Shown: positions 805 through 5,664 of the stretch, piece by piece
How the letters are laid out: every line of letters starts with the position of its first letter
Position numbering within the stretch: position 1 is the stretch's first letter
Position numbers and translations under genes: made by a program
Notes under the pieces: model-generated
The model's database searches: none
The model's input: the letters and a program-made list of their open reading frames with translations, nothing else
What the model was told of the DNA's origin: nothing
Assembly (NCBI GenBank): GCA_046563655.1
Contig: CM102286.1
Location: 13,764,001-13,828,000, forward strand
DNA length: 64,000 bases
DNA from: Yuukianura sp. NJ FZ-2021
Lineage: Eukaryota
Reading direction: 5' to 3'

Positions 805-1545
805 TATCAAGTCAAGGTGATTGCGATACGACGATGTTTGATGAACACCTCAAGTGGATGGTACGAACTTAACACCAGTACAGCAGACAGCAAGGCCTAA
901 TTTAGCAGATTAGTAATTGATAATCAGTAACTTAAAATACCGTCATCAGTGGATCCGATTTGAAAACCGAAAAGCAACCGGGTGATGTTCTTTATGAAAC
1001 AGACGTCGGCAATTCCTCAATATTCAGTTGAGACTTGAGAGATGACATGAATTTGCAAATTCTTCAATTTTGAATTTCCCGCATTCTCACTATACTGTCT
1101 TGTCAAATACCCGGCTAAAGTGAACTTTGTAGTGCCTCATTGCACCTCCACCTCATATTAGTTGAGAACCACATTTTTTGAACCCCGCAAAATCTCGAAT
1201 TTGAATTGTAACCCTTCTTCCAGTTATCATTCGTACGGCTAGGAACGCAAACTTTAATAAATAACATCTTAAGTTTGGATGGTACCCCACCCAGCATAGT
1301 ATTAATATGTTAGGGGTATGGGGTACAATATAAATTCAAGATTTTTGAATGTCCCAGTGTGATTGTATTGTGATTTTTTATATTTAGGTAAAATATCTAA
1401 TGTTAACCAGTATGAGGGGAGATCGACTGCTTTTCAATACGATTTGCTGCAAGATTTTTTTAAAAAACACAAGCAAAAATTCCTTGCAGAAAATAGGGAC
1501 GAACATTTTCTGCAAGCTTTTTTCTTGCAGAGAACGGAGGCGTTG

Positions 1546-1978
1546 CACAGTGGGGCCGATCGCTTCAAACAACGACAAGCGTTTCGGGGGAAACAAATTG
1601 ATTATTAGAAAATACACGATTATAGAGGCAAAACAGTCGCTAACTTATTGACATAACAACCGAAAGTACAGCGCGATTTCAGTTTTTATGATTTACGAAC
1701 TGGATTTCCCCTCATAGACGCAATTTTTCACCAACTTCAAAAATCAGTTAAAAATACTAAATTGGTAAAGTGGCACCAAGTGGCGGTCGGACTTGATACG
1801 TGATGCTGTCTAGTTTTTATTGCTATATTCAGGTTATCTGTAGGTAACGGACATTTTTGGACGATTTGATCTTTGTAGATCCTGATTTTGGCATTCATTT
1901 TTAATGTAATTTCTAAAAATCAACATAGCGTTTCCCCTGACAACCGTGGCGCCTGTTTGAAGCAGCGACTCCACTGTG
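1546..1978. mobile_element. Transib-type MITE (433 bp) nested in the left arm of the larger element
   Basis: Termini CACAGTGG...CCACTGTG, imperfect TIR of about 70 bp (GCTTCAAACA, GGGGAAAC, TTGATTnTTAGAAA), 5-bp TSD CGTTG at 1541-1545 and 1979-1983. Removing it restores the host arm's symmetry with the right arm. Confidence 0.85.
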
Positions 1979-2135
1979 CGTTGTTATAAGAAGTTTGCGC
2001 AAAATCGAGCCGTTGTTATAAGAAACATGCGGAAAATCCAGATGTTGTCATAAAAAGCTTGGGGAAAATCGATGCGTTGTTATAAAAAGATTGCGGAAAA
2101 TCGAGACGTTGTTATAAGAAACATGCGGAAAATTT

Positions 2136-4913
2136 GAGGAATTGGAATTTTAAAAAATTCAGCTGAAATTTAACTTTTGGATATATTTGCCTTGCCGAGG
2201 ATTCACGCGTACTCTACCGTCTTGACATGTTGGCCTCGTGAAAAATTGACCTGTTCTCTAACTTTTTGACGTGTCCAAATTTTTAAAAATTCACTTGTAC
2301 ACTTACTTTTTGAGGATTTGGAATTTTGAAAAATTCAGCTGAAATTCAACTTTTGGAAATATTTGCCTTGCCGAGGATTCACGCGTACTCTACCGTCTTG
2401 AAATGTTGGTCTCGTGAAAAATTGACCTGTTCTCTAACTTTTTGACGTGTTCAAATTTTTAAAAATTCACTTGTACACTTACTTTTTGAGGATTTGGAAT
2501 TTTGAAAAATTCAGCTGAAATTCAACTTTTGGATATATTTGCCTTGCCGAGGATTTACGCGTACTCTACCGTCTTGAAATGTTGGTCTCGTGAAAAATTG
2601 ACCCGTTCTCTAACTTTTTGACGTGTCCAAATTTTTAAAAATTCACTTGTACACTTACTTTTTGAGGATTTGGAATTTTGAAAAATTCAGCTGAAATTCA
2701 ACTTTTGGATATATTTGCCTTGCCGAGGATTTACGCGTACTCTACCGTCTTGAAATGTTGGTCTCGTGAAAAATTGACCCGTTCTCTAACTTTTTGACGT
2801 GTCCAAATTTTTAAAAATTCACTTGTACACTTACTTTTTGAGGATTTGGAATTTTGAAAAATTCAGCTGAAATTCAACTTTTGGATATATTTGCCTTGCC
2901 GAGGATTCACGCGTACTCTACCGTCTTGAAATGTTGGTCTCGTGAAAAATTGACCTGTTCTCTAACTTTTTGACGTGTCCAAATTTTTAAAAATTCACTT
3001 GTACACTTACTTTTTGAGGATTTGGAATTTTGAAAAATTCAGCTGAAATTCAACTTTTGGATATATTTGCCTTGCCGAGGATTCACGCGTACTCTACCGT
3101 CTTGAAATGTTGGTCTCGTGAAAAATTGACCTGTTCTCTAACTTTGTGACGTGTCCAAATTTTTAAAAATTCACTTGTACACTTACTTTTTGAGGATTTG
3201 GAATTTTGAAAAATTCAGCTGAAATTCAACTTTTGGATATATTTGCCTTGCCGAGGATTCACGCGTACTCTACCGTCTTGAAATGTTGGTCTCGTGAAAA
3301 ATTGACCTGTTCTCTAACTTTTTGACGTGTCCAAATTTTTAAAAATTCACTTGTACACTTACTTTTTGAGGATTTGGAATTTTGAAAAATTCAGCTGAAA
3401 TTCAACTTTTGGATATATTTGCCTTGCCGAGGATTCACGCGTACTCTACCGTCTTGAAATGTTGGTCTCGTGAAAAATTGACCTGTTCTCTAACTTTTTG
3501 ACGTGTCCAAATTTTTAAAAATTCACTTGTACACTTACTTTTTGAGGATTTGGAATTTTGAAAAATTCAGCTGAAATTCAACTTTTGGATATATTTGCCT
3601 TGCCGAGGATTTACGCGTACTCTACCGTCTTGAAATGTTGGTCTCGTGAAAAATTGACCCGTTCTCTAACTTTTTGACGTGTCCAAATTTTTAAAAATTC
3701 ACTTGTACACTTACTTTTTGAGGATTTGGAATTTTGAAAAATTCAGCTGAAATTCAACTTTTGGAAATATTTGCCTTGCCGAGGATTCACGCGTACTCTA
3801 CCGTCTTGAAATGTTGGTCTCGTGAAAAATTGACCTGTTCTCTAACTTTTTGACGTGTTCAAATTTTTAAAAATTCACTTGTACACTTACTTTTTGAGGA
3901 TTTGGAATTTTGAAAAATTCAGCTGAAATTCAACTTTTGGATATATTTGCCTTGCCGAGGATTTACGCGTACTCTACCGTCTTGAAATGTTGGTCTCGTG
4001 AAAAATTGACCCGTTCTCTAACTTTTTGACGTGTCCAAATTTTTAAAAATTCACTTGTACACTTACTTTTTGAGGATTTGGAATTTTGAAAAATTCAGCT
4101 GAAATTCAACTTTTGGATATATTTGCCTTGCCGAGGATTCACGCGTACTCTACCGTCTTGAAATGTTGGTCTCGTGAAAAATTGACCCGTTCTCTAACTT
4201 TTTGACGTGTCCAAATTTTTAAAAATTCACTTGTACACTTACTTTTTGAGGATTTGGAATTTTGAAAAATTCAGCTGAAATTCAACTTTTGGAAATATTT
4301 GCCTTGCCGAGGATTCACGCGTACTCTACCGTCTTGAAATGTTGGTCTCGTGAAAAATTGACCTGTTCTCTAACTTTTTGACGTGTCCAAATTTTTAAAA
4401 ATTCACTTGTACACTTACTTTTTGAGGATTTGGAATTTTGAAAAATTCAGCTGAAATTCAACTTTTGGATATATTTGCCTTGCCGAGGATTTACGCGTAC
4501 TCTACCGTCTTGAAATGTTGGTCTCGTGAAAAATTGACCCGTTCTCTAACTTTTTGACGTGTCCAAATTTTTAAAAATTCACTTGTACACTTACTTTTTG
4601 AGGATTTGGAATTTTGAAAAATTCAGCTGAAATTCAACTTTTGGATATATTTGCCTTGCCGAGTATTCACGCGTACTCTACCGTCTTGAAATGTTGGTCT
4701 CGTGAAAAATTGACCTGTTCTCTAACTTTTTGACGTGTCCAAATTTTTAAAAATTCACTTGTACACTTACTTTTTGAGGATTTGGAATTTTGAAAAATTC
4801 AGCTGAAATTCAACTTTTGGATATATTTGCCTTGCCGAGGATTTACGCGTACTCTACCGTCTTGAAATGTTGGTCTCGTGAAAAATTGACCTGTTTTCTA
4901 ACTTTTTGACGTG
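2136..4913. repeat. Tandem satellite array, 176-bp unit, about 15.8 near-identical copies
   Basis: GAGGATTTGGAATTTTGAAAAATTCAGCTG recurs every 176 bp from 2136 to 4776, with a degenerate remnant near 4959-4988. Confidence 0.98.
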
Positions 4914-5664
4914 ACAAAATTTTGTGACAAAATACTATAACTTTTACGTTTACTTTTCGAGGAATTCTAACTTGGGAAAATTCAGCTGTCGTAAAATCTT
5001 AAAAGTGAATTATAATTTATAACAACGTCTCGATTCTCCGCAAGTTTCTTATAACAGCGCTTCGATTCTTCGCAAGCTTTAGATAACAGCTCCTCGATTT
5101 TCCGCAAGCTTCTTATAACAACGTCTCGATTTCTGCAAGAAAAAAACTTGCAGAAAATGTTCGTTTTGATTTTCTGCAAGGAAATTTAATTGTGTTTTTT
5201 AAAAAAAAAGCTTGCAGCAAATCGCGTTGAAAAGCAGTCGATCTCCCCGCATAAATCAGAAGGGTACAATGAGAGAGAAAAGGCCTTACCTCAACCGTCT
5301 CGTTTGTTTGTAAACAATGAAAAAGAATTTATTATCAATTTGAACTTGACATGAGGTTAATTATAATAGTTTACCCGAATCCGAGTTAATTAATTCTGCT
5401 GGGTCTTCATAAATCTCCGCAAAGCAATTACTACATGAGATTGTATAGGTAATTCAATGAACCATATATTTTGTGTATTAAACAACGTTTGGCCAAGTTT
5501 AACTGTTTCTATTATCTTTTGCAGGTCTATTATACTCGATTCTTGCCTACAAAAATCGATCTCCGTCTCTCGTGTCGTTGCCGGCGTACCGCGTAACGTA
5601 CCCGTACGGTGATTAACTTAAAGACGGAAATAGTGAATTAGAGCAAAAACGAAAGAAGACCGCC

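Follow-up and report, generated by a model that had tools for sequence, protein, structure and literature searches.

RSS-like ends are well established for Transib transposons, and models of the step from Transib to RAG invoke the acquisition of a second gene with a regulatory role. In HzTransib (Helicoverpa zea, 6pqn and related) and in RAG, heptamer-directed nick-hairpin cleavage is followed by strand transfer with a 5-bp stagger (PMC4840297). The ends of HzTransib are heptamer-like and scarcely nonamer-like (PMC4840297, PMC8289069). An RSS23-like end, in which an A-rich nonamer lies 23 bp after the heptamer (the Kapitonov and Jurka consensus), is a common Transib type that is absent in HzTransib (PMC1131882, PMC8355894), and 12/23-type Transibs (Transib5, Transib2_AG, TransibN1-3_AG) combine one RSS12-like and one RSS23-like end. 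Transib end architecture is, however, labile (10.64898/2026.08.26.747230). Transib elements are stated to hold a single gene (PMC7204232), and their catalytic D-E spacing is 206-214 residues, compared with 253 in RAG1 (PMC1131882). The acidic hinges of RAG2 and RAG2L-A suppress transposition when they are tethered (10.1101/2023.08.20.553239).

The window is the whole stretch of DNA analysed here, 64,000 nucleotides from Yuukianura sp. NJ FZ-2021, and all coordinates of the element are given in window positions. It contains a small, non-coding and recently mobile miniature element (MITE) of ordinary Transib type, whose parts and surroundings are as follows.

1411 to 5253 (no strand): host inverted-repeat element, young and unrelated, with a 176-bp array inside it (2133-4896); the MITE lies within its left arm.
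1541 to 1545 (+): left 5-bp target site duplication (TSD), CGTTG; one CGTTG stands at the empty site in 14/14 sibling host copies.
1546 to 1978 (no strand): non-autonomous Transib (MITE), 433 bp, young subfamily; 92-94% identity to its seven closest relatives among the matches listed.
1546 to 1552 (+): left heptamer CACAGTG, invariant (46/46 ends).
1546 to 1628 (+): segment collinear with one end (~83 bp) of a 5,077-bp autonomous element; 88% over the first 69 bp, with an 83-bp alignment for copy L019.
1565 to 1573 (+): left A-rich block TCAAACAAC, 12-bp spacer after the heptamer; 6/9 to the RSS nonamer.
1589 to 1594 (+): left GGAAAC, 44-49 from the left tip, in 20/23 left ends; candidate second binding site.
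1666 to 1978 (+): collinear match to the opposite end of the 5,077-bp element, ~312 bp on the side upstream of its transposase gene; 77% over ~250 bp for the window copy.
1930 to 1935 (-): right GGAAAC, 44-49 from the right tip, in 23/23 right ends.
1952 to 1960 (-): right block TCAAACAGG, 11-bp spacer; 5/9 to the RSS nonamer; one subfamily only (10/23 copies).
1972 to 1978 (-): right heptamer CACAGTG, invariant (46/46 ends).
1979 to 1983 (+): right 5-bp TSD CGTTG, which repeats the letters of the left TSD.

The sequence-only reading of this stretch had described CACAGTG at both ends, a 5-bp TSD, and spacers of 12 bp before TCAAACAAC on the left and 11 bp before TCAAACAGG on the right. The letters agree on every point, with the heptamers starting at 1546 (+) and 1978 (-) and CGTTG at 1541-1545 and 1979-1983. 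A second shared block was said to be spaced unequally on the two ends; this is so for TTGATT, which is offset by 3 bp, but not for the GGAAAC before it, which occupies 44-49 from both tips. CACAGTG by itself is matched nine times in the window versus 5.9 expected, and 17 of 100 shuffles are as high. The heptamer alone is within chance while the element itself exceeds chance, and the case for the element therefore rests on its copies.

A copy search of the 98.7-Mb genome gave at least 43 matches, the best 30 of which were retrieved. They represent 22 distinct two-ended places, and with the autonomous parent make up a set of 23 copies; two duplicates of other loci and six one-ended matches were excluded, and the presence of a TSD was not used for selection. 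A 5-bp TSD was found in 23/23 two-ended copies (from the best 30 of at least 43 matches, plus the parent), and CACAGTG at all 46 ends, as had been proposed as a check on the family. The TSDs are 62% GC compared with 37% in the flanks. Twenty near-full-length copies are 431-456 bp long (19 of them 431-433 bp), 75-100% alike, and fall into several subfamilies. Two of them are identical and another two almost so, with different TSDs at the two sites of each pair. The family combines CAC-starting terminal inverted repeats (TIRs) bearing a CACAATG/CACAGTG-like heptamer, 5-bp GC-rich TSDs, and ends in common with an element coding for a Transib transposase, and its assignment as a Transib-type MITE stands on these three features.

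Indels are rare in the family, with 342 substitutions versus four gap blocks on a tree of 20 copies. By one pairwise method, 3.6 gaps were counted per 86 substitutions in the MITE family, compared with 26 per 158 in the internal non-coding DNA of two sister elements. This scarcity, which the choice of full-length copies favours, suggests that long, spacing-sensitive ends may be required. Such ends are familiar from other DNA transposons. Some roles for the MITE were considered and set aside. Its changes have no period-3 pattern, as a coding role would leave; a 10.5-bp period in them reached p 0.012, uncorrected for 27 periods tried, with periods of 13 and 14.5 stronger, and was not accepted. 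For a structured RNA role, the RNAalifold covariation term was unfavourable (+0.52), with double changes in 5/87 pairs, and an Rfam search of window positions 1200-5600 returned 0 matches.

Several individual copies have unusual structures. Subfamily ends and interiors are mixed in the mosaic copies L009, L010-L012 and L019; in L019 the right end is 98% identical to the parent and the interior 75-80%, which suggests conversion or template repair from the autonomous element. The MITE copy with TSD CAGGA (G000:C3:5985258-6005590; L036, L037, L028) is split near an internal TTAA by ~20 kb containing several long ORFs, putatively receptor-like. This same TTAA carries a 578-bp insertion in copy L021. 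The related loci L041 and L042 each have a CACAGTG end resembling that of the MITE (73-75% over 92 bp) with long ORFs after it, and may belong to a larger element of another family.

The surrounding host repeat dates the insertion. The 135 bp that precede the MITE are 98.5-100% identical in the best 14 sibling host copies, and all 14 have an empty site with one CGTTG and no MITE; therefore the TSD is real and the insertion recent. The earlier suggestion that the MITE arrived after its host element is confirmed by these empty sites. The host array consists of ~16 tandem 176-bp units of 97-98% identity, and the host element is flanked by genes for 26S proteasome subunit 4 and Sgf11. Its family (1411-5253 in the window; L076-L089) has TA termini and 6-bp TSDs in 4/4 copies seen whole, with 5/6 TSD bases matching in the copy in the window. 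We take it to resemble elements of the IS3EU type.

The search for an autonomous partner with the same ends was successful. A pattern search of the genome listed 54 ends, one pair of which lies 5,077 bp apart (G000:C2:8909073-8914149, equivalent to L033 574-5650) with TSD AGCCG. Its ends match those of the MITE, the only such case among the eight transposase loci found. The MITE corresponds to ~83 bp of one partner end joined to ~312 bp of the other; copy L019 is identical to the partner at 176/180 terminal bases and aligns over the 312 bp, while the window copy is 77-88% identical to the partner ends and its right end differs beyond position 10. The right block TCAAACAGG is missing from the autonomous element. 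Two loci with Pfam RAG1 matches (L034, L035) were rejected as partners, being other-family Transib transposases; the ends of L034 differ, and no TIR pair was found for L035. Other Transib loci were observed at L034 3717-7208, L064 2993-6355, L067 3212-6274, L035 6354-3871 and L065. The transposase frames of L034, L035 and L067 are long and open, and three other-family elements have TIRs and 5-bp TSDs.

The partner transposase (697 aa) is encoded by four exons. They are separated by three GT-AG introns (56, 65 and 70 bp), and the spliced frame is not broken by any stop. HzTransib 6pqn is the best PDB match of each exon (E 6.5e-34 to 1.4e-10), with ~38-40% identity over the aligned core, and an exon-1 model (pLDDT 91.6) matches HzTransib first, followed by RAG1 and BbRAG1L. 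The DDE triad is D278, D385 and E595, the last assigned by alignment to 6pqn and presumably the catalytic E. The 210-aa distance from D385 to E595 is inside the Transib range and unlike that of RAG1, which would imply loss of the alpha11-alpha12 RAG2-binding region. There is no cysteine in the C-terminal tail, and hence no CTT1/CCGHC. Relatives of exon 1 among longer proteins were missed by a word-index search and recovered with HMMER; the nearest named relatives are proteins of Folsomia candida. The sequence-only reading had expected a Transib/RAG1-like transposase. A Transib transposase with the same ends does exist in the genome; it is HzTransib-like rather than RAG1L and lacks the GRPR/K motif.

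In both sequence and structure, HzTransib is the described system closest to the partner. With HzTransib and subgroup II Transib (PMC9435367) it shares CAC ends, 5-bp GC-leaning TSDs, little nonamer likeness and the lack of a CCGHC tail, and it likely falls into the latter subgroup (Tao et al., 2022). Unlike HzTransib, it has three introns that are clade-wide, no GRPR/K, an acidic second ORF and a fixed GGAAAC at 44-49.

Public run contigs from four runs of one sample, which may be the source of the assembly, provide evidence on the recent history of the parent. In 3/4 runs, contigs join L033 568 to 5651 across the whole parent. These empty-site contigs do not agree with the locus at some adjacent bases and may come from another allele or a paralogous flank. 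One contig in the fourth run (recorded 'DNA?') skips exactly intron 2. Variants in the run contigs are 2-4% diverged, and four of the six listed for exon 4 are synonymous. Together, the run contigs hint at a recent or polymorphic parent insertion, and at transcription.

Very probably, the MITE is a Transib deletion derivative that owes its movement in trans to the HzTransib-like enzyme encoded by the C2 element or by a close sister copy. The shared ends, the open spliced frame with its DDE triad, the 5-bp GC-rich TSDs and the recent insertion are observed directly. We infer the mover of the window copy, because this copy is only 77-88% identical to the parent ends and its right end diverges; the enzyme may have come from a sister element that the assembly lacks. 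As a deletion derivative of a cut-and-paste Transib, the MITE would keep only the two ends, and the transposase of the 5,077-bp element, or that of its sister, would mobilise it in trans. By analogy with HzTransib and RAG, the enzyme would cleave at the CAC that opens each heptamer, through nick-hairpin chemistry, and the ends would be inserted 5 bp apart into a GC-leaning target. Family specificity would come from CACAGTGGGG and from distal blocks whose positions are fixed: GGAAAC at 44-49 of either end and, at the left end, the A-rich block. Such sequences may be read by N-terminal helical domains without GRPR/K, with no RAG nonamer mode and no 12/23 rule.

Internally deleted derivatives amplified in trans from a one- or few-copy partner are likewise described for TransibN1-3_AG (PMC1131882) and for Kodama/Hopper with its partner Nozomi (10.64898/2026.08.26.747230). 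Compared with these, the MITE family here is much shorter, comprises several subfamilies that are 75-100% alike and has mosaic ends. The 12/23-like asymmetry of TransibN1-3_AG is absent from it.

The resemblance to the RSS nonamer, which had been offered as partial, requires separate consideration, given that the ends could act like V(D)J signals in which a heptamer and a nonamer 12 bp away are read by a RAG1-type nonamer-binding domain (NBD). Left ends do score best against the nonamer at a 12-bp spacing, with a mean of 6.5/9, and ACAAACAAC is read at 12 bp in the parent and in most older copies, a 7/9 match that random stretches reach in 2-5% of draws. HzTransib also responds to a nonamer at 12 bp (PMC4840297). 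RAG1 alignments of the exon-1 model reach into the region of residues 88-149, and these residues match the RAG1 NBD (3gnb) weakly (Z 4.3, rmsd 3.5, 59 aligned), among unrelated helical matches. However, nonamer position 6 is C on all left ends, no end is of the 23 type, and the right-end block changes place between subfamilies. The nonamer-contacting motif GRPR/K (GR[PK]), which marks the start of the NBD (10.1101/2023.08.20.553239), is present in 0/4 rows of the partner's clade versus 29/41 other rows. It is thus highly doubtful that the ends are read in this way.

The scores of the window copy itself are close to chance. In comparison with ACAAAAACC, its left end scores 6/9 at 12 bp and its right end 5/9 at 11 bp, values that random stretches reach in 9% and 30% of cases when six RSS spacer lengths are allowed; at 23 bp the two ends score 1/9 and 0/9. 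AA at nonamer positions 5-6 was found in 0/23 left ends with a 12-bp spacer and in 0/46 ends with a 23-bp spacer, so that the family has neither an RSS23-like end nor the paired RSS12-like and RSS23-like ends of the 12/23-type Transibs. A 12/23 asymmetry was rejected on the spacers of 12 and 11 bp and on the conserved block, which stands equally far from the two tips. Only 10/23 copies have TCAAAC at the right end, where it seems to reflect a later change that made this end more like the left one. With near-chance scores, a right motif confined to these copies and a transposase without GRPR/K, the nonamer resemblance did not prove meaningful, and the RSS likeness of the MITE adds nothing beyond known Transib features. 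The left A-rich block is a different matter; it probably matters, because it is kept (as WYAAACAA) in 23/23 left ends.

The architecture of the parent raises the further question of a RAG2-like gene. ORF2 of the parent, with 99 codons at L033 4665-4369 (-), lies tail-to-tail with the transposase and has 37% D/E. Its ATG directly follows a GT-AG intron-like stretch, its GC content is 52% compared with 28-29% around it, and it is single-copy in the genome. RAGL, ProtoRAG and TransibSU elements (PMC7204232, PMC4411706) have in common with the parent the heptamer ends, the 5-bp TSD and a convergent second ORF. The parent might accordingly be read as a RAGL (RAG1L-RAG2L) transposon whose acidic ORF is a RAG2L remnant, since the two genes lie tail-to-tail between the TIRs and the D/E content of ORF2 is inside the 34-44% range of the RAG2 acidic hinge (10.1101/2023.08.20.553239). 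Unlike those elements, it has no RAG2L kelch-PHD gene and no CCGHC tail, and its catalytic spacing is of the Transib type. Within the 5,077 bp no ORF is large enough for a kelch propeller, Pfam returned nothing for ORF2, the transposase is HzTransib-like, and in the sisters ORF2 is on the same strand as the transposase. The RAGL reading is largely refuted and retains almost no probability; no RAG2-like gene is present inside the element. A Pfam RAG2 search of the genome gave 0 candidates, a result that is uninformative since the control was likewise without a match.

The sisters of the parent place this acidic ORF in a wider context. In a tree of 49 rows (exon-1 core, midpoint-rooted, with HzTransib and RAG1 rows left out), the parent groups with L063 and L066 of the same genome and with the JGI metagenome contigs L090-L092 (support 99/98). 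Intron positions are common to the clade: all three are found in L090-L092 and the first two could be read in L063 and L066, the third coinciding with a break in L063 and being lost with a deletion in L066. An acidic ORF (23-37% D/E) lies downstream of the transposase in 5/5 members with downstream sequence, the contig of the sixth stopping ~320 bp after the transposase stop, and in 0/3 other TIR-bound Transibs of the genome. For the L063/L066 pair, dN/dS of this ORF is 0.25 (p 7e-7), and for the C-terminal half in the L091/L092 pair it is 0.33 (p 2e-4). The acidic ORF is, as judged from these substitution patterns, under purifying selection in two independent sister pairs. The basic ORF3 exon of L063/L066 has a dN/dS of 0.18.

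These acidic ORFs might nevertheless be unrelated captured or chance low-complexity passengers, with no role in transposition, in an ordinary single-gene Transib lineage. The three ORF2 types have no significant homology to one another, and orientation varies, only the ORF of the parent being convergent. Searches for relatives of the parent ORF2 found none in the genome or the Atlas and two candidates, neither significant, in a protein database, and the L091 ORF2 recovered only itself; no ORF2 has a Pfam match, and these blank searches do not show absence. However, purifying selection in two pairs and in the ORF3 exon, the similar place and composition in 5/5 members, and the intron-like stretch and raised GC at the parent ORF2 all speak against passengers, which we consider somewhat unlikely. 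No RNA sequence carrying the parent was listed, and the parent ORF2 is without cover in run X4; both observations weigh neither way. The openly available literature searched, Repbase not included, yielded no Transib with a non-RAG2 second gene or ribozymes. Within it, the parent lineage looks like an undescribed Transib variant with more than one gene, and would carry accessory ORFs of which acidic ORF2 is probably a real element-encoded protein.

A more ambitious proposal is that this is an undescribed intron-bearing, multi-gene Transib lineage of soil arthropods in which a free acidic protein would associate with the transposase of its own element, at the basic surfaces that bind DNA, and damp transposition. 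The idea arises because the tethered hinges of RAG2 and RAG2L-A have that suppressive effect; ORF2 would parallel the RAG2 acidic hinge independently of RAG2. In the parent it is convergent with the transposase, and the sisters have a basic ORF3 and structured-RNA motifs beside these genes. The hinges of RAG2/RAG2L-A are 52-78 aa long with 34-44% D/E, compared with 99 aa and 37% for ORF2 (10.1101/2023.08.20.553239). The hinge is tethered to the RAG2 core, whereas ORF2 is free-standing, without sequence homology and with a putative role. Taken as a whole, the proposal appears distinctly improbable, the inhibitor role being drawn by analogy.

The MITE adds one more member to a known kind of element, and the interest lies in the lineage of its parent. 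A separate Transib clade that gained second genes under purifying selection would show second-gene capture to be recurrent. Should the acidic protein prove to inhibit transposition, it would offer a natural model for how the RAG2 acidic hinge could originate and act. In addition, a transposase that is apparently intact and recently mobile is found here together with a 433-bp natural substrate, a pair suited to the study of end recognition by a Transib without GRPR/K and CCGHC.

Structured-RNA motifs were observed in the sisters. A conserved motif of ~60 nt is located at L063 6085-6023 and 3252-3190 (-), L066 6047-6109, L091 620-682 and 3500-3562, and L092 2142-2204 and 3156-3218. It lies ~190 nt upstream of the transposase exon and the ORF2 exon, with one L092 copy after ORF2, and folds into an outer stem and an inner hairpin with an AGUA/GAA pair, which we take to resemble the loop-E motif. 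Across the seven related copies 98% of cells pair and two pairs are changed on both sides, a level reached by 7/500 shuffles. The motif has no Rfam match, is absent from the parent and from IMG/VR, and occurs at three places in the genome. In L090, at 4238-4302 (+), an HDV-like ribozyme fold lies ~100 bp past the transposase stop, near the place of the 60-nt motif in the sisters. It matches Rfam RF02682 at 30.9 bits (E 0.06), below the gathering threshold of 44, and the fold was also found by a custom descriptor; in the literature searched, HDV-like ribozymes turned up with retrotransposons only.

A second Transib MITE family (L033 5696-6259, L096-L125) has ends in common with L063/L066. Among its 15 copies in the 540-590 bp range, 13 are 562-567 bp long, with middles apparently derived from different deletion breakpoints, which hints at selection for minimal length.
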